Positions 10,904 to 56,441 of a stretch of DNA of 64,000 nucleotides are shown piece by piece; position 1 is the stretch's first letter; every line of letters begins with the position of its first letter. Origin of the DNA: a virus (taxonomy: Duplodnaviria > Caudoviricetes); IMG/VR virus record IMGVR_UViG_3300031992_000031, positions 69,462 to 133,461 of that record; one strand, given 5' to 3'. Below the pieces are notes generated by a model that did not search any database, was not told the DNA's origin, and saw only the letters and a list, made by a program, of their open reading frames with translations. A program made the position numbers and the translations under genes.

Positions 10904-10932
10904 TTGACTATTTTGAAAATTTATTGTATAAT
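10904..10932 (+). promoter_or_regulatory. sigma70-type promoter
   Basis: TTGACT, 17 bp, TATAAT. Confidence 0.75.
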
Positions 10933-11029: not shown

Positions 11030-11860
11030 ATGGGATATATTTATAAAATTACTAATTTAGTCAATAATAAGGCTTATGTTGGACAAACAAAATAGCCTAT
11101 TGAAATAAGGTGGGAAGCGCATGTATATGCGGCTTTCAGAGAAAATGACGATAATAGATATTATCTTCATCGTGCTATAAATAAATATGGTTTAGAAAAT
11201 TTTAAATTTGAAATAATTGAAGAAGTTCCCAATACTAAATTGGATGAAAGAGAAATTTATTGGATAGCACATTTTCACACATATAGATATGACGAAGAAG
11301 GAAATCAAGGTTATAATCTAACTCGTGGCGGTAAAGGTAACTGGAAATTTGAACCAGAAGCGCTATTGAAAGCATTTTTTAATAATAATGAACATTTAGG
11401 AAATACATGTAAAGATATTGGATGTGCAGAGCCAACTTTAATCAAGGTTTTACAAGAAAATGGATTATTTGGTAAAGGTAGTATGACTTCAGTATATCAA
11501 ATATCTTTGGTAGATGGAAGTATTATTAAGAAGTTTGATTCAGCCATAGAAGTTATGAAAACTTTTAATCGTTGTAAAACTGCAATATGTGATGCAATGA
11601 ATGGTAGACAGAAAACTGCTGCTGGATATATATGGTGTAAAGTAGAAGATTATCCTAATTTTAAACTTGAAGAACATATAGATAATAAGCAAAAGAAAGT
11701 ATTATGTGTGGAAAAGAATTTACAATTTAATATGATTAAAGATGCTGGCAAATGGGTATATGAAAATGGATATACGACTAGTAGAGAAGTAAATGCAAAT
11801 ATATGTAGAGCATGTAAAAAAGGTATAAAAGCATACGGCTTCCATTGGCAGTATGTATAA
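11030..11860 (+). CDS. free-standing GIY-YIG homing endonuclease with NUMOD1-type repeats (276 aa, one TAG=Gln)
   Basis: MGYIYKITNLVNNKAYVGQTK*PIEIRW...LHRAINKYG..NF...EREIYWI...GYNLTRGG; in-frame TAG at 11093-11095 (codon 22). The ORF track shows only the 3' part. Confidence 0.88.
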
Positions 11861-11893
11861 TAATAAAAATATTTATAAAAGAGGTAATGTAAA

Positions 11894-12517
11894 ATGACCA
11901 TAAACTATTGTGGCCTTGTAGAGTAATCTACATTGAATAACCTGTCTAATTCGGGGAAAATCTCTATGAGATAACCGCCGAGCTAAACTTCGTAAGAAGA
12001 AATGTGGAACGACTAGCTGAAAAGCGTAGCCTCAAGTGAGGCGAAAAGACAGGAACCCTACATTTTGAGGGTTGTGATATAGTCTGAACTTTATGGCGAC
12101 ATAAAGCAGTTCATAAGAGAACGAATATAGATTAACGACCTATATTGAACATTTTGTAATAGTGAACGTGTATTAAACTTTTTAAAGGAAAATTATGGCA
12201 AGGAATTTAGTAAGCAGGAAATCGCGGATGCCCTGGGCATTTCTCTATCTGCTGTAATTGGGAGCATCAATCCTCTAGAAAAGAAAGGTTATTCTCATGT
12301 AACCCGTGAAGAAGTAATTGAACTGGAGCCCGCTACGGAAACTCGTAAGGCAAAGACTAAGACCGTTAAGTATCATACTCTAACTGAAGAGGGTCTAGCT
12401 TATGATCCTATTGCTGAGGAAGCCGAAAAGATCGCCGCGAAGCAGGCAGAAAAAGAGCGTAAGGCCGCAGAAAAGGCAGCTGCGAAAGCCGCTAAGGAAG
12501 CAGAAGCAACATTTTAA
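11894..12517 (+). CDS. intron-split winged-helix protein with Ala/Lys-rich tail; join(11894..11901,12157..12517), 122 aa
   Basis: GAGGT RBS; ATG ACC AT | intron | T AAT AGT gives MTINSERVLNFLKENYGKEFSKQEIADALGISLSAVIGSINPLEKKGY...KAAEKAAAKAAKEAEATF. Exon 2 lacks its own ATG and is missing from the ORF track. Confidence 0.85.
11902..12156 (+). mobile_element. group I self-splicing intron (255 nt, no internal ORF)
   Basis: Core elements AATTCGGGGAA (P), AACCGCCGAGC (Q), GGAACGACTA (R), GATATAGTCT (S); 5' splice U.G pair in P1 (CCAU/GUGG); P10 ACUAUUG/UAAUAGU; terminal omega-G at 12156. Confidence 0.9.
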
Positions 12518-40250: not shown

Positions 40251-43200
40251 TTACCCCCCTATTCTATTCCAACCTTGCGACTTACGTGCTATTTGGATCA
40301 TGCGGTCAAGCGCTTGCTCGCCCGCGCGTTGAGCATCATAATCGTTCGCAATTTGAGAAACATTCATTTCAACAGTTGCATTCTCTATTATAATGCCGCC
40401 ATCGGACGGTCCAATCACACTATTTGTTGCGTTTGAAATATTATTATATGCGTCCCTAAAGTCGGTTAGCAGACTTAATAGGGAAGTTGGTTTATTGCTT
40501 AGAATATCGTTGCGTAAGGTTGCAGTTTGTGAAGCCGTTAGAACAGATTCTTTTGCATGAACTAAAGCTGGTCCAGTTTCATCAACAATACCACCTTTAT
40601 CGAACGTAGCTAATGTTGCCAAAGCTAATTGTGACAAGCGCCTTGCTTCCATTCCTGATTTTGGATTGTTCCCGGTAGTCATTATATCATTGCCAAGCTA
40701 AGTTATCTTTAAGACTGCTGCCTATTTGGCGGCTTCTTTAGTATCAAATCCATCCTATTCAAAACGCTTACCATTATATACAAATGAATATTTGTGCTTT
40801 TTATCATTACTAGAATTATTCGAGCTAGTTCCATTACCGCCATTACCACCGCCATTGCCGCCAGCAGTAGAAGCAGCAAAGTTTCCTTCGGTCTTGGCCT
40901 TCTCCTCAGCCTCTTTCTTCTCTTTTTCAGCTTTCTTCTTGGCAACTTCATCACCATACAAGGTAGTAAGAATGTCCAATCCGCCATCCAGCGTTTCTTG
41001 AAGCTCCTTAAAACGCTAAATCTCAAATAAATCTTCACGAATTGTTTTTGTTAATTCTGTTGGTGATTGTCCCCAATATTCTTTTGTATTTTCTTTAATG
41101 AACTCTGAAATACTTTCGGGAGAACCTTGTAATACTTCATATACAGCATTCCAAAGTAATCCATTCTCTTTCTCATATTCAAGCTATTCAGTCATTATTT
41201 CAATCTAATGGTCTAAGCGCTCTAATTGATTATCAGAAGCTTTCTACAATGCATCAATCTACTACTACTAGGCATCAAAATACATATTTTGTTGCTTTTC
41301 ACTAATCTAGCGTTGTAAATCAGTAATTTGAGAAGCAGAGCCACCAGAGCGCTATAAAATAGCCAACTGCCGCTGTAGCTTACCAAACTCATCAGCTTCC
41401 TACTAATTAGAATACATTTGTTTTTCAAGATTGAGCTACTCACTTAATCCATCAATTAATGCTTTAGAAGACTTTTCAATTGCATCGCGTTCTTTCTAGA
41501 ATTCATCAATTTCGCGCTATCTACTATCTTCAATAGCTTTCAATACTTTCTATTCTACATTAATTTGATTATCTTCAATATCTCGAATAATTTCATTAAT
41601 GCTAGCTTGAGATTCAAGAACTGCGTTTCTATGTTCTTCAACAGAGTCATGTAATGACTGCATTTCTTCTTTATCCGCGTCTATTTTATCCCAAAAAGCT
41701 TGTAGTGCGGTGTTATACCAATCTGTACCTTCCTGTTTAATTTCATTACCGGAAGAATCATACTTCATAGCAAATTCAAATCCAGCATCAACTAACCGCT
41801 TATATTGTTCTTCAGCAGTATAATTAGCTTCACCAGTAGTAGCATTGCGACCTGATAAATCAGATAGCCAAGCTAATGCTCCATCTTTATAATAAAGCTA
41901 ACCACTTTCACCAAATCCATATAAGGCACTAAATGCGCTCTACTCATTAAGCTCTTTACGACGTTTTTCGAAATATTCGTACTAAGAATCTGCTAAAGAC
42001 TAATGTACTACTAACTATTGTTGTAAAGCCTTTAAAGTCTTCATTTGACTCTTATAATAATCTTGCCCATGAGCAATCATATCAGATTGAATTTTAGCGC
42101 GCTCTTTTTCTTCATGTGTAATTTCTTTTTCTAGCTAAGCAATTTGCTGTAACCAGTTATACCACTTTTCTAGATCTTTTAAGAAGGCTTTTGGATCACC
42201 GCCGCCTCCACCACCGCCACCTTTACCAGCTAAATCTTTTGTGGTTAAGGACTCTAATGCTTTCCATTGCGCACGTAGCTATTTTAATGCATTTAAAGCT
42301 GCGCTAGCAGATGCTTTTGCAGGGCCGCCATGTATATTACCTTTCGCATAAGAAACAGCATTTCTTTCATTAGTAACCGCTCTTCCGCGTCCAGAAGACA
42401 TTCCTTTTTCAAGAAGTGATTTAGTTTGTAAATGATTAAATACTATTGCATCATTTGCCAGATTAACCATTTCAGGGCCATTCTAACCAACGATGGAATA
42501 ACGGCCATTAGAAACTACAAGTTCTGGGCCGAGTTCTCCCATTAGCGTACCCTATGCCCTTGCTAGGCCGACAGTACCTTTTGCGACATTTGAACCTTCG
42601 CTTGACGGCTAATCAGAATTACTAGTATTATCAGTTGTTGTAGTTAATACTTTAGATTTTGGCGTCCAATTATCCCAATCTGCTTTAAGAGTTTCAATTT
42701 TTGATGTCGCAGTCTAAGTATCAACTTTTACTTCTATAGAACTTTCTTGAACATCATTTTTTAAAGCATCAAATTTATCTTTTGCATCTTCAGAAGTCTT
42801 TGCTACTTGCTCAATCTTACTATCGTCTATATTTGTAAACGCATCTTTAATACCCTCAGAAACAGTCTCTTTTAATCCTAAATCCATTCCAAGGAGCTGC
42901 TCACGAATATAGGTTTCTAATTTACTAGTATCAATATGACCCTCTGCATCCGCGATCTCTGCTCCAGAAATAGTAATTTTAGCTCCACCTAATGTTAATT
43001 CTAATTCGCCATTAGGATTTAATCCATCGATTATTTGACTACGCCATGCACCAGATTCTAAATCTTTTTTAACACTTTCTCTAATGTCGCTTGGATTCTT
43101 TAAATCGACCTTTGTATCACCAACTGTAACAGTCGTTTCAGTATGAACATATTCTCCAAAATGCCAATAAGCTTGCTTCTTCGCCTCTAGATCATTAGAG

Positions 43201-46200
43201 AAATCTTTCAACTCATTACCTTGATGTTGACTATTCCACCAATTAAGAGCTAATTCATTAATATTTTTTCCGTAATGCCCTTCATTATCAGTATAAATAC
43301 GATTACTATCTTCGTCATATTCAACAAAAACCTTAGCCTTTCCTTCAACAGCAGTTTGTAGCTATATTTGCTATGGTTCCTCGGTAAAATCAATATTATC
43401 AGGAATTATCGCGTTAATACCATCTAAAAGTGCAGTCCACAAAGCTATATTCTTTCTTGCTTCCGGATTTGATGTATCTGATGTATTAAATGTATAACTT
43501 TTTCCATTAATATTGGCTGTAATTTTATCCTAATCAATAGTTAGTTTATCCTCTATCTATAATATAGTCTCAAGAGTCGTAGAATCTTGCACTGCTTGCC
43601 CATTATGATATTTCTAAATTTCTTCTTGTAAATCTTCCTACTTTTTTCCAGTTTCTTTCTTCCATTTTTCTAAGACTTCTTTTGTATTTGAATCATCCCA
43701 ATCAATCTAGGTAATCTATCCACCACTAATAATAAGAGTAGTATTATCAAGTTGAATAACTAAATCTTCACCTAATCCAGATTCCTAAGCAATTGAGGCC
43801 AAACTATCATATAGATTATCTAAGTCCCATTCACCGGATTGATACATTTTCCACATAGAATCAAGAACTGAAGTTAAAGCTTGAGCATCATCAATACTGA
43901 TCTCATCCTTTTTCGCATTTGTTAATAGAGTTCTTAATGATTGATTATTAACTTTAATCTGATCTAATGCTTTATACAAATCATTTTCTTTATCATCTAA
44001 TTCTAATAAAGAATTAACCCATTTTGTGACGCTAGAATTAGCAGTATTTAATCCAGCAAATCCGCCGCCTAAATCAGTAAAGAAATCACCAAAATCAATT
44101 TTGCTATTTTCTCCAGTAATATCACCAAGTTTTTCCATCTAAACAATTACTTCAAGTAATCGTATCATGCCATCAAGCATTTTAACTTGTGATTTTGCCA
44201 TTGACGCAATACCAGCATTAATTCCGCTAGACATTTCTCCGCTGCCAGCTTCAAAATCAACACCAATTTTTCCTAGTGCTACTTTAATATTACCAGTACT
44301 ATCAACAGTTAATGCTTTCGCGCCCTTCTGAATTAAAGCTGCGGCAGCTTCCATAGAACCATCTAATTTAATACCAGCAACCTCAAAATCTTGACCTAGC
44401 GCCGCAATATTATTCATTTCAGTAACAATATTATACCAATCCTAATAATTAATGAGACCCTTATCTTTACCATTAGTTTTATTTAAAGCTGTATCTAATG
44501 TTTGAATTGCTTGTGCCCAGTTATTAAAATAATTAATAGGATTATTTTGCGCTCCAGGAATCTTATTGGACATAAAATTAAATCCTTCATCTTCAGAAGT
44601 AGAGCGAGTTGCAAGAATTTGTTTAGCTAAATCTAATTCTTGTTGATACTCTTTTGAACGAGCGTCTGGAGCAATCTTTTCTAGCTCTATAATTCTTGCC
44701 TAAATATCACTAATGCTCTTATAATGTTCATTAGTTTCTTTTAAACTATTATTAAGTTCATTAAATATTAATTCAGCTTGAATAGCATCAATATCTTTAA
44801 CTTTATTATATAATGCAATAGCCTAATTAGTAGATAATTTTAAACCTTCAGTTGTTTTAGTAAAATCTAATTTAATATTAAATTGATCCGCCCAGGACTA
44901 TAATTTCTGCGCTTGAACATTTGTAAGGCTACCAGAAATACCACCTTTAATTAAATCAATAATACCATTAATATAATCATTAACAGCATCAGCTAATTCA
45001 GCGAGTTCTTCCGGTAGTAATCCGGCATTTTCGCTTGCTAATTGAGCAATAGTATTAACTAATTCCGGAATATTGGTTTCAGATGAAATTTCTAAAATTC
45101 TGTCATTAACGGATGCGCCCAATTTATTAAAATAGACGTTATTAAGCGCGGCTTCAGCCATTCCTAATTTGTCTACTAGATAAGTTACATTAATTCTATC
45201 TCCTGCTTTAGCTTCAGTGATAGCTTTAACTTCTTCAGTTATATTTTCACCAATCTTCTTATCTAAAGCAATTAAAGAATCGTTATAAGCTTTATAGGCT
45301 TCTGTATATGCTTCAGAATCAGGCCTCCAGTGCATTTTACTAGCAAATGCATTAAAATCATAAATCTAAACCTAACCATTACCTAAAGAGCGTAATCCAT
45401 AATCAGCGGAATTAGCAATAGCACTTTCTAATGTAACACCATACTTAGCAAGCATTTCGCCCAAGGCTTCATATGACATTCCCATTGCATCATTTAACAC
45501 TGAAATTGCATCAGTTTCTGGCTATTCTATCGCTGTTAAGAATTTAGCATATAAACTATTTAATTGAGAAGTAGTTTTTGCGCTATCAGCATCCATCTAG
45601 GCATATAATCTTGAATATGCATCAGCCATATTAGTTACAGAAGTAATTACAACACTTCCATCATCTAATTTAATAGTTTCAATTCCATCGCTTACTTCCT
45701 CCGCGATATTCGCTGCCATACCAGTAAGAACCGTCCCTTCGCCCTGTTCAAGCGATTCCATAGCTGTGTTAATACGATTTATTCCGGCATGATATACAGC
45801 ATCAATTTCATCAGGAGCAAGTTCATCACCTTTAAGTTCTTTAATCCATTTAACCGCGTCAGCACCGCCAGCATCAATAATAGAAAGAATTTTTTCTACA
45901 GTGGCATCAGCTATATTTCCACCCTAAGCATTATACCAATTTTTAATCTGCTGTCCTAAATTATTAGCCGCTTTATGCTTTTCAGTAGGATTAGTAGCAT
46001 TAATAAAACCAGCAATATCCATATTCTACTAAATCATAGTTAAAGTTTGATCTTTAATATATTCATTAATAGCATCTCCAGACATGCCTAATTTCTCTAA
46101 TTCTTTTCTCTAAGCTTCAAAATATGTTTTTAATACATCAGCCTTTAAAGTAAACTAATCCAAATTGGTATCATACTAGAAAGCATCTTTTATACTTAAA

Positions 46201-49200
46201 TTACTATTTTCTACTATTTTATTATATTCATCAACAAATTTCTACATATCTGAAATACTATTAGTTCCCTAATATGTATAACCACCCGCAGTAGAAATCG
46301 AAGATAAAATATTATTTTGAGCGTCTGCAATTGTTTCTTTAATATGATTGGCTAATGCTTCATCTATACCAGATAAAGCCTCTACTAATCCAGAAACATC
46401 TAATTGACCTGCATCGGTTATAAACTCACTATATTCATCGCCAAGCACACTTAAACTATCTTTTAGACTATCTCTAAATATCTTAAGATCAGCATCGGTT
46501 GCTGTGCCACTTAGAACCTTATCCCAATTTAAACCACTAATATTATCAAATACTGCCTGCTGTGCTTGGGCCATAGCTTTATTATAAGCATTAGAATCTA
46601 TTTGACCATTAACGCTCATTGCCTTAGCAAGCTCGAGAGCATAATCACTAAGTGTCATCACATAATGGTCTCCAACCTCTTTTAATTTACCTTCTTCTCC
46701 GATATCACCAATCTTTAAGCCACCCTTATCAATTAGTGTAGAAACCTAATCAGCAGTAATTGTAAATAAGTTAGAGCCAATTCCAGCCCAAGCATCTTTA
46801 GACTAAGTAAGAACTGTTTGCATAGCTTTCCAATTCTTAGCTAAATCTTCAGAAGTCCAACCTGTTTTTTGATATAAGTAATATGGATTTTTAGCAGAAA
46901 GTTCAGCAAAATATTTCTAAGCGTTTTGAGCATACTATAAAGCATTTGTAACTCTAAGAATACCATTATCAATAATAGCAGCACCATTAGCTTTTAGCTC
47001 ACGCTAAACGTCTTGTGATAACTAAGACACATTCATTTCTTTAAATAAAGAAACTGAATTAAAAGCATTATCATAGGATTTTTTAATTAAATCTTGGAAC
47101 TGAGTGTCAAGGGTAATTATACCATCAACATAGGATGAATAAGCATTTTGATAGTCAAAAGTCTATTTAAAATCACTAAACTATTGATCATCCATGCCCA
47201 TAGCTTCTTGTAACTTAGAAGCAAATCTCTGCCAATTAATAATTTTAGTTTTTCCAAACTAATTTGTTTCTAGTACATTTTCAAAACCATTTGTCCATGT
47301 TAAATTATCAGTTAAATAATCTGATAATTTTAAATTAAATTTAGTAAATGTATCTTTTAAAGTATCAATATCTAATGATGCACCCGATGCAATAACGGTA
47401 ATTGCCTAGTTAGCCTATTCATAATTTTTAGTTAAAATAGAACTATAAGCTTCATTAGCCTCTGCAGTTGAGTTAAAATGTTCTTGTACATTTCTATATA
47501 ATGTAATCGCACTTTGTACTAGATTATCGCTCGCCGCGAGCAAGCCTTGATTATCTAATTCACTCAACCCAGCATCTTCCAATAGTCCTCTTGTGGTATC
47601 AGATAACTTACTACCCGTCCCACTAAAAATTTCATTAATCGCTGTAGTTGCCGACTATGCAAGATTAATTTTCTTTTCAGACTAATAAGCTGTCATTGCC
47701 GCTTTAAAGCCTGCCTCATCGAACTATGTTATTTTTTGGCCTTCTTCATTAAAGCCTGTTTTAGTATATATTGTCCTTAAATATTCCTCATAAACAAGTT
47801 CATCTAAATTAGCTGAATTGTTCATTTTTTCATCTGAAATATTTAATGCTTTTCCTAAGGCACGTAAATTTCGTGTATTTTTTCCAGTTAAATCAGCTCC
47901 AGGAGTATATAAAGCAGACCAATCAATATTCTAAAACAAAGCATTTTGATAATCTTTTTCTTGCGCATCATACATAGCCTAAATTTGTTCAGCAAGCTAT
48001 TCATCACTTTGCTATTTCTCTTCAAGCCATGTAAAAAAGTTATCTAAAGTTTTTTCTTGTGTTTCATCAGTATAAAATTCTTCTATTAAGTCTTGTAAAA
48101 TTTGTCGACTAGCTGTATCCTCTTCATTTAATGACATTAATTCATTTATATGCTTTTCAAAATCAGCTTTATCATCTTTAAAGTCTTTTGTTGGATCAAA
48201 AGTGATAATTTCTTCTGTCTAGGTATATTGATTTATACCGCTTTCTAATTGTGTAAGAAATTCATAATCCTCTACATCCTTCCACTCTAATACTTTATCA
48301 TTTAAAACGTTTAATAAATTCTCAGAATTTGAAAAAGTATTTGCCAGTTCATCATCTGTCATAGACATAACATTATTAAAGAAAAGATCCCATTCATCCT
48401 CGGTAAAATTTACATTAAATAATTCACTTATTAAAGCCTACTATGCTGAACGTACTGTATCTCTAGTTAAACCTCTATCAAAGTCAGAACTTGGTATAGT
48501 ACTAGCAACACTACTTATAAGATCTAAAGATCTCGCATTATATTTTCGATAAGCTGCCGCAGCAGCGCCACCGACCGTATCAGGATTCGTTCCATTTAAG
48601 AAATGCTTATCATAATCCTCAGAATCTGTATAATAAGTACTGCTATTTCCTGGATTAAAAAGTGCTTTATCTTCATCGGTTAAAGTGTAAAACTCATCTG
48701 ATGATTCTCCTACTCTTTCTAAAAAGCTTCCTAATTCAATTATTCGTTCTGGAGTAACTTTTTCTTGATTCATGTACTCGGTTACCATAGATAATGTATC
48801 ATTATCTTTATTTGCGTCAAATTCTGGTAGCTTTAAAACTTGACGGGATATTTTTTGCTATCCCGTAGGAAGATTACCCTTTTTTCCACTTAAATTATCT
48901 ATTAATTCTTTCCTCTATTTAATTTTTGCTTCTGTATCTTCCTTAGTTTTAATAAAATTATTTCTCCTAGCTTCTATACTCTTTTCTAAACCTTCTTCTG
49001 TCATTACATATTTTTTTAAGATCGGATCAAATACAAATAAGTCATTAAAATTTAAATCAGAACCGTCAGATAATAATTTTACTACTTCTTCAAATTCTTC
49101 TACCGCTTTTTCAAATTCAATACCAGATTTATTAATTGATAATGAAGAATTTAACTTTTTAGAAAGATCTTTAACTTGTTTAATACTATCCTCATAAATA

Positions 49201-52200
49201 GTATTTAAATTATAATTAATACTATTTATTATACTTTGTCTTACTGTTTCAAGTCCTTCCTTATTCTAAAATTCATCATGAGTATTTGCATAACTAGACA
49301 TATCATCAAAGACTTTATTAATTTCTTCTGGATTAGAAAAATTTATATTAATAATCATATTAAATAATTCATTTTGTATATCATCAGTCTATTGCCCTAC
49401 TATATACATAATCTAATCCAATGCGTTTAATCTAGCCTAAGCAAGAGCTGTATATCCATCTTCAGCAAATCTATTTATCTATGCAAACTAATCAGTAACA
49501 AAATCGGAATATATAGATAATACATGAGTATCAGAGTCGTCCATAAAACGTTCTTTAATCCACATTATCTAATCTTCTGTGGTATATTCTTGTTTACTAT
49601 CATTCCATGTACCTTTATTTTTATTCTGAAGAATTTTCTTTAAACCTAATAGATTAGAATTAACTTTTCCAGTAGTCTAATTAAACACAGTAGAAAGAAA
49701 TCTATCTAAATTATCTTTTCTTGCATCTATTAATAACTGATTAAAACTTTTATATAAAGCATTATCTTCATTTAATTGTAAATCGAAATATTCTAATAAT
49801 TCATTTATATTACTAAATTCGCCATAATTAACAGAAGTAAGCTTTTCTCTCTAAGTTTCTGTTAGGCCCTTAATTGCAGATAAGAAATCTCTCTTTGAAC
49901 CACCTTTTTTATAAAATGTTTCATACAATTTAAGATATGACTCATTTGATTCTAATTCATTTTTATAATCATACGATAAAGAAAAATCATCATTAATAAT
50001 ATCATAAAGTTCCTATCTTCTTTCAGCCGTAGATCGTTCCTATTTTGCTGTAGTATAATTCCGTCTCGCTGATCTCTAAAAACTCTCAACCAGCTTTGCG
50101 GCTTTATTAACACCAGAGGAAGTCAAATCATCATAGTCAAGTACGCCTGCCAACTGTTTAAATTCAGTTGCCCCACCAAAAATATCAGAATATTTTGAAA
50201 AATAATCTTCATCTAATTCTTTTGCAATACCTTTTACATTAAAGCCCTATTGCATAAGAGCAATTTTACGTTGTACCTCATCAATTACTTGTAACTCATA
50301 ATCTCTGGTCACTACTTGAACATTAGCCTAATCCGCGGCAGTCTGAGCACTAACAGAACGCTCATCCACTAATTTTTTCTCTGCTGCAATTAAATTAATA
50401 ATAGCATTTCCAGCTGCATCATAACTCGAGATTAATTCAGGATACTATGCTGCCATAGAGCTCATTGCACTAGTATATGCATCCATATCTTCTTGTGAGT
50501 TATACATTGATTTACGTAATTCTTTAATATTATCAATAGAAGAAGATAGCTCTGTTACTCTTGCTTGCTATTTCTAATTTCTTTCTTTAGCGGCATCTAG
50601 CATTTTTCTAGCGTCAGCTAATTTTTCACTAAGAGTATACTTTAAACCATCAAGTATACTTCCAAGTCCCCCGACAAGAAATCCTGCTATACCGCCAATC
50701 GCAGCGCCCCACGGGCCAAACATTGCCCCCATTGATACTCCGGTAGCTGCGCCAGAAAGGCCCTAGCCTGCACCAGCTATCAATTTATCATTTTCAGTAT
50801 TTCTATTTTTTATATCTTCTACATCTTTAACACCATAATTTGCAGAAGCTCCAATTATCACTGGGGCAATTAATCTTGCAATATTTGAAGCAAGCATTAC
50901 TCCTTGACGTTTATTACTGCCCTATTTCCATTTAAAATGCTTGCCATACTTCGCACCCATATTATGTCGCCAATTAGTAAATCGTGCACGCATGGTAGGA
51001 TTGGCCGCGTCAACTTCCTCTTCTCCGGATTCAGTTGGCTCTACATTACCTTCCGGCGGGACAGCACCGCCTGGCGGAACAACACCACCTGAAGTAGCAT
51101 GAGTGCGCATTGCATTTGTATCTTGGCCGACTACAGTGGTATGCTACTACATTGTAGTCGCTCCTTGTTGAGTCGTGTCTTTTAAGCGTTCTATTGGCTA
51201 AGAAGCACCCTAAGCTACCTTACGAAGTTCTTCTAGCTCTGGCGTTGCAGCGCCCGTAGCATTAGCTGCTTCACCTATTTTTGCAACGAATTGATCAATA
51301 GCTGCATAATTAGCATCATTTTGACTCAAGCCAAGATTATTTAAAACTCCTTGACGATAGTTAGCATCATTTAAGAATGGTGCCTCACTTACTAATGTAG
51401 AAGCAATTGTTCCTTTATCGGCCATCCATCCTTCACTATTAAGCATGTCCTAAACAGTAGTAATTTTAACTGCAACTGGAGTACTCTCTACATTACTCTT
51501 GAGCTAATTTATTTCTTCTCTAGCCTAATTAGTATCTGCCTAAACAGGCTGTGTTACAGGAAGTAAATCATTTATAGTAACCTAGCCAACTACCTACTCT
51601 ACTTTCTATTGTACAACTTCGGGTGATTCTGGCTCAAGCTGAAGAGGAACCACCTAAAGATTATTTGGTCCTAAATTATTAAGATCAAACTATAATTGGC
51701 CACTAGTTCCTACTTCAGGTATAGGCGTAGGCTAATTATTTACCACTGGCGTGTTACCTAAAGGAGACTCATTATTTACAACTGGAGGAGTATTAATATT
51801 TTCTAAAGGAGGATTATTTGTTTTCTAATCCGTTGATAAAGGAATTTTAATTTCTTTTTCTTCCGCGTCCTTCCTTTCTTTATCTATTGCCTCTTTCACT
51901 CCAGTGGTATCAGCAGTAACTTTTACTTTCCAGTCTTCAGCAAGTCTACTTTTAGATTCTTCAAGTTGTCGAGTGCCGTAAGATTCCGCAGTTTTACCAA
52001 AAACCGACTATGCATCTAAAAATTCCTATCTTTTTAATTGGCGTTCTTCCTATGCTTTCTAAATTGCATTCTAGAATGTTGCATTTGCTTCGGTGAAAGT
52101 CTCCCTAGATGTAGCTGTTTTTAATTCTGACCAAGAAGCCAACTAAACTCTAGGTGTACTAGATGGTGAAACATTACCCGCAAATCCCTCTCTATCTGTA

Positions 52201-55200
52201 GGTGAAATTAATGTAGGATTATTTGCAACTCCCATTATAATGCCCATATTATTTGGTATTCCTGGACTAACTGGAGCGGTAACTCTAGCCATTGCTTCAC
52301 GACCCAATCGTGCCTATTCTTCTTTGTAACGATTTTCTTCTGCTGCTTTTCTTTCCGCTTCTTCTCTAGCCCTTCTTGCGGCTGCCTCTTCTTGAGCCTT
52401 TCTTTCTGCTTCTTTCGCCCTTCTTTCTGCTTCTTCTTTAACTTTTCTTTGTTCTTCTTCTATTCTTGCTCTGCGGTCAGCTTCCTCTTGCGCTTTTCGT
52501 GCGGCTTCTTCTTCTTGTGCCTTTTTTGCAGCTTCTTCCTATTCTGCTTTCTATGTCGCTACAGTAGAAACTACAGTTCCCTTGCCATATTGTTTTTCAA
52601 GTGCTGACTATACTTCATTGTCTCTTATAACATCTCGTAATGCTCTATTACTAGTACGTCCTCCATAGCCAAGCATATTATAAAGTTGACTTAAACCAAC
52701 ATCTCTAATAGCTGATGGTAAAATAGGAGCATTTTCTGGTGTCATATTGCTATATTGATTATTTAAATTATTATATCTCTATAACAATTCTTCGGCTCTC
52801 TAAGAATTAGAACCAGCGGCTTCCCAATCACTTCGTGCCGATTTAACTTCTTTTCCTAATCTTTCTCTACCAGTTCTATAAGAAGTTTCCTAAATAGCAT
52901 TAAAAGTTTCTTCACCAAAAATACTTCTTAATTCATCTTTACTATGGGTCGCCATAGTTTTAGCAAATCCATTTAAAGCAGTTTCTAATTTAACCTATAA
53001 ACCGCTTAAATCAATTTCACCATTATTAATTGATTGAGCTAAACTCTATAATACCGTTTTACCAATTTCTGCTGAAGATGCCCCCGCCTCTTTCGCGGCC
53101 TTCATCATTGCCTAAACTGCTGCGCCGCCAACTCCAGTTTCTAACATAGCCATAATTAATGGAGAAGGAGAATGAATATCTAATGAGCTTCGTATACCTT
53201 CAAGAATAGACTATCCTAATGTTTGAGCTGCACTACCCGTAATACCAGCAGAATTTAGCATACCAGTTATTAAGCTTAATGCAACATTAGATCCAATTAC
53301 TTCTATCTATCCTTTAATTCCTTCCATACCAGATAAAGAATTTAATATCTACCCCTTAATTTCTTCCATTGTTCCTTCAAAATTAACAGTTGGAGTAATA
53401 GAAGTTAATGTCTAACTAAAGGCCATCGCTGCAGTTTCTTGAACTCCATTTAACCCAGTTCTAAAAATATCAGCAATTTCAGTAATTTTTGCTGTAATTG
53501 CTGGATTCTATGATAATGACTATAACAATCCCTATATTGCACTATTACCAGCATTAGAAAAAGAAGATATTAATTTTGGAGCCAATTCATTCGAGCCATT
53601 TATAATTTCTTCAACATTTTGTCTAAAATTAGTAGCCCATTCAGGATTGGTAAAATCAATTGAATTCAAACTATTCTATAACTGGCCTAAAACTGTTGGG
53701 TCAATTGCATCTACTAAATTAAGTCTAGCTTTTAATTCTACTTCATTTAAACCAAGTTCCGCAGCCTAAGACTAAATTTGAGCTTTTAAATCTTCTATAT
53801 TTAAATTTAAATTAGAATTAGTCTATGTACCTAATTCACTAGTATCCGCTTTTACTTTAACAGGCATTTCTCGATTCTATTTAATCTTCTCATCTAATTC
53901 CTTTAAAGAATTTTCTGCATCAGTTTTATCAATTTTAAGCTTTTCAACTCTTTCCTATTGTTCTCCAACTCTTTTCTAATATGCCTCTTTTCCCATATTG
54001 ATAAGATTTTTTGCGCCTATACCCGCATTTACCACCGAGAATAGAGTTGGTAATATTCCTTTAAAAGTACCTAATTTTCCTATTAAAGTAATAAGTTTAG
54101 TTAACCATTCATATGTTCCCTTTAAAGCATCTTCAAAATGAAGATCTAAATATAATTGTGAAAATGCATTTTTTAACTAATTAGCTTTAGACTCTAAGGA
54201 ATCCATAGCTTTTGCTGTCTAGACCATACCAGCATTTTCAGCATTACTAGACGTATCTATTGCACGTTTTAATTCATCATAATTAGATACTAATGCAATA
54301 AAACGAGATTGTTGTCTATTACCAGCCATAACCGTAGCAACATATCTCTATGTATTATTATCTAATGTATTCCATTTTTTTGCTAATTCTAAAATTACAT
54401 CATCAAAATCACGAAATTGGCCAGCGCTATCTTTAAGAGAAATACCAATAGATTTTAAAGCTGTATCAACTTTATTAAATGCCACTTCTTCTCCATCAAC
54501 ATTTAATAATGTACTTGGCGATGCTTTCATTTCGCCATAACGAGAAATAATAGATTTTAAAGCAGAACCAATATTTTGCGCGCCTTCACGAGTGGTCTGC
54601 TCCATAACACTAATAAAAGCAGAAGTCGTCTATAATGACATGCCTACATTCGCCGCAGAAGAAGCGGTCTTTTCCATAGCATTTGCAATTTCTGCTGAGC
54701 TAACGGCAAATTTTGCCGCTAAAGCGCTATATGTATCAGTTACTTGCGCGGCATTTTCCATATCAATGTTAAACGCACGAATAGCAACAGTCATAGCATT
54801 AGTTGCTTCGGTATAATCCATACCAGAAACCTTAGCCATTTTTAGTGTTTCAGTTGTTAAAGCCATTACCTCATTAGTCTATAAACCTTGTTGATAGAAT
54901 AACTGAGAAACTGTATATACATCTTTTGTTGCAACACCAAACTATTGTGCTGTCTATGTATATTGTCCAATTTTACCCCAAAGTTCTTTTTGAGACATAT
55001 TTGTAACAATAGCAATATTAGTTATACTTTGATCCAATTCCTTTATATTACTAATAGCACTTTTAATAAATTGTGATACTTTTCTAACAACAGCATAAAC
55101 GCCAATATAACGATTAATAAAATTTTGTATCCCCTATAATTTATTAAGTGTCTAATTCATTCTAGCTAACTTAGCTTCTCCTTCATTAACAGCGAGACCT

Positions 55201-56441
55201 AATGCTCTTACTTCATTACCGGCCTACGCCATTGCTGCGCTAAATTGTGGAGAACTCTAAACAGACTAAAGTAAATTATTTTTCAAATTACTTAACTCTT
55301 GCTAAGGTATACGTAAGGCTTCAGCGAGTTCCTGCGCTTTAGAAGCAATTTCCTTATTCGGAAGATCAAATGCAGAGACTACTTTATTATAAGCATCAGA
55401 TTTTGTCTAAGTTTTATCTAATTCCTATTTCGCGCGTTCAACTTCTTTTAACTATTCAGCATAGTTATTTTTTGCCAATTCAATATTTGTTTTATTAGAA
55501 CCAAAAAGCATATTCGCAGCAAAATCGCTGTCTGTTCCCATTTTTTTCCAGGCACCTTTCATGCCGTTTTCTAAAGTTTTCGCCTATTCTTCCATTCTTT
55601 GAAGCATTTCTTGTGTTTGTTGAGGAGTCAATTCAAATCTTGCGCGAAGCTCTTTTAAAAAGCGATTTTCTCCTACCACACCACGGTTGAAACCAGAAAA
55701 TTCAGAAATTCCCTTATTATTAATGTCAAATTTCATATAAGAAGACATTAATTCCTATATTTCATTCTTTTTTCCTTCTTTTGGTATCTATTTAAAAGCA
55801 TCTTGTAAAAAACTTACAGCGCCCCACTAAGTCATACTTTGTTTTCCATTAGAATTCTAAGTAATCTTTTTCTAAGCTTCCTCGTACGCTATTGATTGTA
55901 CTTTTAATAAAGCATTAATACTGGTCATTTTATTATTAATAACTTTATATAATTCATCATAGCCCTTTTCTAATATTTTCGCCGCAGCAGCAGGCCCTTC
56001 TGCAATATTTAAATTAGATAAAAATGTCTAATCATTAAGAATTTTGTCCTTCTAAGTTCCTTTAAATGAAATTAAACTATTCTATAGCTAATTAATACGA
56101 GAATTTAATCCATCAATTTTAGACTATATATCATCTGGAATTTTTAAATCTTCAAAACGAAGATTTTTTGAAGCATTTTGAATACGATTAATACCAAGTT
56201 CTATTGCATCTACATCTTTCTAAATAGATTTAAAACTACTATCAGTATTTAATGAAATTTGTGACTTAGCAGAAATCTATTCTAATCTGCTCATTATTTT
56301 ATTTAACTCTTGTTCAAATTTTTTGCCGCCAAGAGAATCAGCTAAAAGATTTTTACCAGCAAATGCTTTTAACTAATTTGTAATATCCTATAAATTTTTA
56401 ATCTACAATGATACTGGAAGTTCAATGCCCTAAGTCACCAT
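40251..56441 (-). CDS. giant tail tape-measure protein (~5,396 aa, dense TAG=Gln)
   Basis: AAAGGAG RBS, ATG 56441, TAA 40251. Fourteen ORF-track fragments share the frame, and a manual read found only TAG in frame. TMP motifs YQQG, TRE..NIGSALKSIISRY, MAGNRQQSRF, DIHSPS, GELGPEL, FDKGG. Confidence 0.88.

Follow-up and report, generated by a model that had tools for sequence, protein, structure and literature searches.

A small winged-helix gene in this phage DNA appears to be split after only eight coding nucleotides, which raises the question whether the interruption is a genuine group I intron and, if so, whether it gates the gene as a regulatory switch or is a selfish passenger. For the window, by which we mean the whole stretch of 64,000 nucleotides analysed here, the initial annotation had proposed a 255-nt group I intron at 11902-12156 with a P/Q/R/S core, to be checked by an Infernal search with group I models and by a look for intronless alleles. 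Both checks spoke for the proposal. A covariance model scan (cmscan) of positions 11700-12400 revealed a match to RF00028 at 11892-12106 on the plus strand, the strand of all features below unless stated otherwise, with 77.4 bits (gathering score 50; E 7e-20) over the full model (1-253), including the conserved core of P3-P8, and the intron is missing from L017, L002-L007 and many other loci. An RF00028 search of the whole 133,461-base viral record gave a single match, located at the same place, and the 291-nt intron region folds better than shuffled controls (z = -3.9). An Rfam scan of the entire 64-kb window at the gathering threshold returned no match and thereby missed the intron; given the 77.4 bits obtained in the targeted scan, this empty result is an artefact of the speed filter. 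That a routine scan overlooked the intron shows how easily such an element escapes annotation. As a side observation, negative whole-window Rfam scans warrant caution, since a 77-bit intron escaped one.

The predicted boundaries of the intron are fixed, independently of the covariance model, by an allele with an empty site on an IMG/VR contig (L017), in which no intron was detected with Rfam. This allele reads ...AAAATGACCAT|TAATAGTGAACGTGTATTAAAC..., with exactly 255 nt missing and flanks that are otherwise identical to those of the window; the context of its junction is GGTAATGTAAAATGACCAT followed by TAATAGTGAACGTGTATTAAAC, or ATGACCAT^TAATAGTG in short form. Because the two junctions do not carry the same bases, comparison of L017 with the window fixes the splice junction to the base. 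A second intron allele was found at the same site of a 66-kb ENA contig (L008); it is 82% identical to that of the window and matches RF00028 with 78.7 bits. In both intron alleles, the 5′ splice site follows a U (U11901 in the window) that forms the U.G wobble of P1 with G11910, and the final intron base, G12156 as defined by the empty-site allele, is the omega-G, so that these two splice signals stand as initially annotated. P1 consists of GACCAUAA (11896-11903) paired with UUGUGGCC (11908-11915) and contains one mismatch, A.C at A11897/C11914. In P10, ACUAUU (11904-11909) pairs with AAUAGU (12158-12163), again in both alleles, through six Watson-Crick pairs. The P10 of 7 bp claimed earlier has to be shortened accordingly, because its seventh pair would reuse G11910, which is already paired with U11901 in P1.

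The insertion leaves a first exon that is extremely short. Downstream of a Shine-Dalgarno-like AGAGGT (11880-11885), which lies 8 nt upstream of the ATG and whose GAGG is conserved in related loci, the coding part of exon 1 is limited to ATGACCAT (11894-11901), i.e. Met, Thr and two bases of codon 3; the same 8 nt are present in L008 and L017. Exon 2 (12157-12517) completes codon 3 with its third base, continues with 119 codons to the stop, and encodes both the helix-turn-helix (HTH) and the C-terminal helix. Joining of the exons (ATGACCAT|TAATAGT junction) results in a 122-aa ORF, MTINSERVLNF..., MTINSERVLNFLKENYGKEF..., and this product, predicted in the initial annotation, is 100% identical to a homologous protein (P0002). 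With exon 2 alone as the query against 5.8 billion proteins, 759 relatives were obtained; most of the best 120 are 122 aa long, three residues longer than the query, and intronless homologue clusters of this length number more than 100. Among the 13 homologues read from the best 120 clusters, ten begin with MT(I/V)NSERVLN, and the others are a protein starting with MNSERV, one starting with MSINSERV and, in L008, a chimera of 147 aa. The family consensus derived from about 140 representative clusters is MTxNS..VL.FLK. Homologues starting inside exon 2 had been named as an observation that would speak against the intron; the N-termini found favour it.

Reading of the unspliced RNA from the same start codon gives the 10-aa peptide MTINYCGLVE, which ends at a TAA (11924-11926) in the frame of exon 1. 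This stop lies in the GUAA loop of P2 and is conserved in L008. In the frame of exon 2, no ATG, GTG or TTG opens an ORF of at least 30 aa. The short unspliced peptide and the missing ATG in exon 2 had been described correctly. As translation cannot begin within exon 2 and the unspliced RNA yields 10 aa, the protein can be made only after splicing; the sequence thus supports the splicing-dependent expression suggested before. Exon 2 itself is intact, without stop or frameshift, and the protein is 93-100% identical to intronless homologues. Gene callers do miss this arrangement, as had been expected: no exon 2 ORF is listed in the window, and the public gene call in L008 (4001-4444) is the 147-aa chimera mentioned above, which under TAG=Q starts within the intron with MIQSELYGDIEQSNKDGYRITNCIEHNC and then continues with NSERV... 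Standard annotation either loses the gene, as in the window, or yields a chimeric protein, as in L008. A larger intron that would also enclose the upstream endonuclease gene described below was considered and rejected; alleles with the endonuclease gene and no intron share with alleles lacking both a start codon located downstream of the endonuclease position.

The secondary structure model comprises, besides P1, the helices P2 (11917-11932), P3 (11941-11947/12047-12053), P4 (11950-11956/11975-11982), P5 (11960-11972), P6 (11988-11999), P7 (about 12011-12015/12080-12084), P7.1 (12016-12025), P7.2 (12029-12042), P8 (12054-12073), P9 (12089-12106), P9.1 (12109-12122) and P9.2 (12124-12146), with the omega-G at 12156. 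RNAalifold analysis of the two intron sequences, window and L008, revealed 70 pairs, of which 14 are maintained by double compensatory changes and one by a single G-U change, while none is broken. The compensatory changes are located in P2, P3, P6, P7.1, P7.2, P9, P9.1 and P9.2; the strands of the core do not vary. The covariation represents one pairwise comparison of the two available alleles, whose flanks (exon 2, 85%; YorF-like gene, 82%) show about the same identity as the introns (82%). The ribozyme is very probably functional, for which this covariation from one sequence pair provides strong indirect evidence.

The best nucleotide matches of the core (71-76%) were the three introns of orf142 of the Staphylococcus phage Twort, other introns of Staphylococcus myoviruses and an intron region of a crAss-like phage. 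Two hairpins that carry compensatory changes, 12016-12025 and 12029-12042, follow the 5′ strand of P7 and precede the 3′ strand of P3. We take them to correspond to P7.1 and P7.2 of subgroup IA2 in the established group I nomenclature. The predicted architecture is thus IA2-like, and the nearest characterised relatives appear to be the Twort introns. These belong to IA2, reside in a tail tube gene, are likewise compact, phage-borne and devoid of an ORF, and match RF00028 with 64-101 bits; their P7.1/P7.2 hairpins are placed between P7 and P3′, as are the two candidate hairpins of the window intron, and the 71-76% identity extends over about 150-250 nt. However, the sequence likeness is confined to the core. 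Moreover, the Twort host gene is structural and carries three introns in its middle, whereas the window has one intron, which interrupts a small winged-helix gene at codon 3, and the phage lineages differ, as the phage of the window has SPbeta-like replication genes and uses TAG as a Gln codon. Searches with short core sequences did not add further relatives: an 18-mer and a 16-mer detected 8 loci among viral contigs and a 17-mer detected 120 loci among metagenome contigs, none of which contained a related intron by blastn and Rfam, and we regard these loci as chance matches. An 18-mer covering the P1 site had no match in viral contigs.

In the minimum-energy fold of the window, UAAAAUG (11890-11896), which includes the start codon, pairs with the last seven bases of the intron, CAUUUUG (12150-12156). 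The equivalents in L008, AAAUUAUG and CACAAUUG, keep most of the pairs by two A-U to U-A swaps; the helix is absent from the fold of L008, which favours a different pairing. It is either a chance pairing or a helix that masks the start codon.

The protein encoded by the split gene was analysed by sequence and structure comparison. Pfam reported HTH_24 above the cut-off (E 2e-5), and a profile of 43 sequences matched TFE, DeoR, MarR and Z-alpha winged helices with E around 1e-3. The AlphaFold model (mean pLDDT 88.5) comprises helices at residues 3-14, 22-29 and 33-45, a wing formed by a long beta-hairpin and, at the C-terminus, a helix of 35 residues (87-121). Foldseek retrieved MarR/TFE-type winged helices with probability 1.00, with TM values of only about 0.45-0.53. 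Sequence searches of the PDB and Foldseek comparison with PDB structures yielded generic winged-helix regulators and no specific function. The protein is thus modelled as a DNA-binding winged-helix protein with a long charged helix, encoded within a replication module. All four lines of evidence (HTH_24, profile, AlphaFold and Foldseek) agree with the winged helix initially described, and the Ala/Lys tail is confirmed as an Ala/Lys/Glu-rich helix. The designation as nucleoid-like is not supported; Glu, Lys and Ala are balanced in the tail helix, unlike in a basic H1-like tail, and the fold is of the generic MarR/TFE type. A 123-aa gene found at the same relative position upstream of yorF in the SPbeta-like phage Goe13 was compared and is not homologous.

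The split winged-helix gene is preceded, in this order, by genes for topoisomerase subunits, a 128-aa ORF, a promoter and a GIY-YIG gene, and is followed by genes for YorF-like, Sak4/AAA_24 and YorH-like proteins and for a DnaB/YorI-like helicase. This helicase shares about 32% identity with yorI, and by its gene content the region appears to be a distant SPbeta-like replication module. The yorI-like helicase and the SPbeta-like module suggest that the phage probably infects Firmicutes. The promoter is a candidate of the sigma-70 type, TTGACT-17-TATAAT (10904-10932), with 11 of 12 matches to the consensus; the same putative promoter directly precedes the winged-helix gene in loci without the endonuclease (L002, L003 and L005 were compared). 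Between promoter and split gene, the GIY-YIG gene (11030-11860) encodes a putative free-standing, I-TevI-like homing endonuclease of 276 aa, as judged from Pfam (GIY-YIG, E 5e-8), PDB (I-TevI catalytic domain 1mk0, E 2e-7) and PHROG (314, homing endonuclease). Its stop codon lies 41 nt upstream of the intron. Among relatives, the replication module appears to be a hot spot for homing endonucleases.

The source phage is a gut or rumen phage of a poorly known lineage with a recoded stop codon. In the region 29142-61051, which is mostly coded on the minus strand, almost no long ORFs exist under translation table 11. We conclude that the phage uses TAG for Gln because three ORFs, of 1772, 706 and 5396 aa, appear on the minus strand once TAG is translated as Gln. 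The longest of them (40251-56441, minus strand) holds 176 TAG codons, which is remarkable in itself. ARAGORN detected no tRNA gene in the window and hence no suppressor tRNA. Recoding of this type in phages is a known phenomenon (bioRxiv 10.1101/2021.08.26.457843). The endonuclease gene is also affected: its codon 22 (11093-11095) is an in-frame TAG that aligns with CAA or CAG Gln codons of homologues. Of 13 full-length endonuclease copies that were compared, 7 contain an in-frame TAG, which occupies codon 22, 53 or 194 and in each case aligns with Gln codons elsewhere; this variation was noted for the copies of the window and of L008, L019, L021, L022, L025 and L167. For the 'Agate' phages, an intron endonuclease with in-frame reassigned stops has been described and argued to be produced with a delay until the code switch (bioRxiv 10.1101/2021.08.26.457843). 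These are, like the phage of the window, alternatively coded gut phages with reassigned stops within an endonuclease gene. In 'Agate', however, TGA is read as Trp and the endonuclease is intron-encoded, whereas in the window TAG is read as Gln, the endonuclease gene is free-standing and the TAG varies among homologues. The variable TAG fits the published idea that recoding delays the production of homing endonucleases, as a trait that is not fixed.

The distribution of intron and endonuclease gene was determined in a sample of about 42 loci (14 with and 28 without the endonuclease gene), which were partly chosen for the presence of the endonuclease. Neither element is present in 28 of the 42 loci; 12 carry the endonuclease gene and no intron, including L017 and L167 with endonucleases 99% and 93% identical to that of the window; and only the window and L008 contain both. 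The intron thus occurs in two of the 14 loci with and in none of the 28 without endonuclease gene, an association that is not significant (hypergeometric p about 0.1) and is subject to biased sampling. Further sampling of endonuclease homologues had contributed five of these loci, all without intron. The intron is also absent from hundreds of homologues of the winged-helix gene, and because it is missing from nearly all alleles, this gene is normally expressed without it.

Comparison with L017 further revealed a mosaic of identity. Identity is about 99% between 11438 and about 12225 and drops to 70-78% thereafter. The near-identical tract takes in the 3′ half of the endonuclease gene together with the spacer and exon 1, and extends past the insertion site to include about 70 nt of exon 2. 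A recombination boundary of the endonuclease cassette would accordingly be located about 70 nt past the insertion site. Such a mosaic, with the insertion site inside, is what would be expected from homing with co-conversion of the flanks. In addition, the first 32 nt of exon 2 (window 12157-12188, L008 4084-4115) are identical in the window, L008 and L017, whereas window and L008 diverge by 15-20% downstream. This stretch far exceeds the 6 nt required by P10 and could be a co-conversion tract, a constrained sequence or a target or immunity sequence of the endonuclease.

The explanation offered in the initial annotation was an evolved post-transcriptional switch, sensitive to GTP and Mg, which gates a regulator or nucleoid-like protein. 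Such a role would suit a gene whose second exon has no start and whose unspliced product is 10 aa long, and also the position of P1 (11896-11915), which overlaps the start codon so that ribosome binding and P1 formation should exclude each other. A regulatory group I ribozyme beside a start codon is indeed known from Clostridioides difficile (PMC3984707). This c-di-GMP-dependent allosteric ribozyme resembles the window intron in its location at a translation start and in that splicing decides on a translatable mRNA; yet it relies on a c-di-GMP aptamer and on alternative 5′ splice sites which make or remove a ribosome-binding site (PMC3984707), and neither was found in the window. Rfam cmscan of 11700-12400 matched no family of riboswitches or aptamers, although E values up to 10 were allowed, and alternative splice sites were not evident. 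Unlike the regulatory ribozyme of C. difficile, the window intron is sporadic, being present in 2 of about 42 loci and missing from near-identical alleles in which the gene works without it. Its patchy occurrence among the closest relatives speaks for a selfish insertion that was gained and/or precisely lost, and against an evolved switch. The genetic neighbourhood, with the endonuclease cassette here and GIY-YIG genes scattered over the module of relatives, is that of mobile DNA, and a neighbouring homing endonuclease is the usual signature of selfish elements. A switch evolved for regulation is therefore very improbable. We give hardly any credence to the opposite assumption of a decayed relic that no longer splices and has turned the winged-helix gene into a pseudogene. 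The A.C mismatch in P1 and the small size of a possibly dispensable gene would be compatible with decay; on the other hand, the two alleles have all 70 pairs in common despite differences at 18% of positions, 14 of these pairs being retained by double changes, both cores score well above the Rfam threshold (77.4 and 78.7 bits) and the intact exon 2 encodes a protein 93-100% identical to intronless homologues.

A mobile intron may spread in different ways, and one of them is homing in trans: the free-standing GIY-YIG enzyme would cut intronless or endonuclease-less alleles near the insertion site, repair would copy both the endonuclease gene and the intron, and the intron would disrupt the target and protect its carrier. 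Precedents exist in two phage systems (PMC3984707; PMC2790892). Collaborative pairs on record are the psbA intron of cyanophage S-PM2 with F-CphI and the nrdA intron of Aeromonas phage Aeh1 with MobE (PMC3984707), to which T4 mobE with the nrdB intron is a related case (PMC2790892). As in these collaborative pairs, an ORF-less intron in the window stands next to a free-standing endonuclease gene, with 41 nt between the stop codon and the intron; a tract resembling co-conversion, near-identical between window and L017, covers the insertion site; and both intron-containing loci possess the endonuclease gene, whereas no intron was found in the 28 loci without it. The known partners are Endo VII-like or HNH enzymes, in contrast to the GIY-YIG protein of the window, a candidate for cleavage at the insertion site, and the gene arrangement differs in that the endonuclease gene of the window is located upstream, between the promoter and the split gene. 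Furthermore, most carriers of the endonuclease among the sampled loci (12 of 14) are intronless, including L017 with identical exon flanks and L167. Intronless alleles with endonuclease gene and identical exons, such as L017, speak against a need for the intron in self-immunity against the endonuclease. The association of the two elements is not significant in a sample partly selected for the endonuclease, and no consistent target-site polymorphism near the insertion site separates alleles with and without endonuclease gene. Homing in trans is thus a tentative and somewhat doubtful explanation. A more elaborate version, which we consider unlikely, treats the approximately 1.1-kb cassette 11030-12156, composed of endonuclease gene, 41-nt spacer and intron, as one mobile unit and as a third, GIY-YIG-based case of collaborative homing, complemented by a delay through TAG and by exclusion between P1 and initiation. 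The spacer of this cassette would hold the ribosome-binding site and the start codon. If this version were true, the in-frame TAG would hold the endonuclease back until the switch from TAG as stop to TAG as Gln, and with P1 formed over the start codon, initiation and splicing would be mutually exclusive on each precursor molecule.

Taken as a whole, the sequence evidence makes it highly likely that the element is a genuine selfish intron without ORF, a sporadic mobile insertion which is under selection for splicing and possibly carried along with the endonuclease cassette, and not a conserved regulatory device. The selfish nature of group I introns is the standard view (PMC3984707). The intron is very probably splicing-competent, as judged from its sequence. 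According to this selfish-intron interpretation, the locus would be transcribed from the promoter at 10904-10932, probably jointly with the upstream endonuclease gene. The ribozyme would fold, an exogenous guanosine would attack after U11901 as in the canonical mechanism, P10 would align exon 2, and the omega-G12156 would be released with ligation of the exons to ATGACCAT|TAATAGT. Only the ligated mRNA would encode the winged-helix protein. Ribosomes on unspliced RNA should halt after 10 codons at the conserved TAA in the loop of P2, before they reach the catalytic core; an early in-frame stop past the 5′ splice site is a known feature of group I introns, which allows folding of the core without interference by ribosomes (PMC3984707). 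Selection for splicing would keep the intron functional, and the endonuclease cassette, when spreading, would likely take it along, because it lies 41 nt from the endonuclease gene and inside the recombination tract of the cassette.

The location of P1 deserves attention in this mechanism. P1 starts at the G of the AUG, with the Shine-Dalgarno-like sequence 8 nt upstream of the start codon, so that a bound 30S subunit should block P1 on the precursor; conversely, the formation of P1 should cover some of the start region, and splicing and initiation could compete. The overlap is a by-product of the insertion position. Nevertheless, a 30S footprint over P1 might lower the efficiency of splicing or translation, and some regulatory consequence is possible.

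The system of the window is a phage ORF-less group I intron located next to a free-standing homing endonuclease gene, which is a known kind of arrangement and not a new one. Its unusual features are the position at codon 3 and the small winged-helix host gene, both atypical for phage introns, and the background of a recoded phage. With this element, a poorly known lineage of recoded gut or rumen phages gains an intron that is well documented, both by structural covariation and by an allele with an exact empty site. Together with the nearby GIY-YIG gene, it provides a natural test case for ORF-less introns mobilised in trans, and the same locus also offers a test of stop-codon recoding as a timer of selfish-element activity. 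Further free-standing GIY-YIG/NUMOD genes occupy other intergenic sites of the module in relatives, behind the AAA_24 gene and ahead of the topoisomerase A gene; they were observed in L002 (6445-7521), L005 (1-1399 and 6546-7613), L170 (5808 onwards) and L019 (3533-4162).
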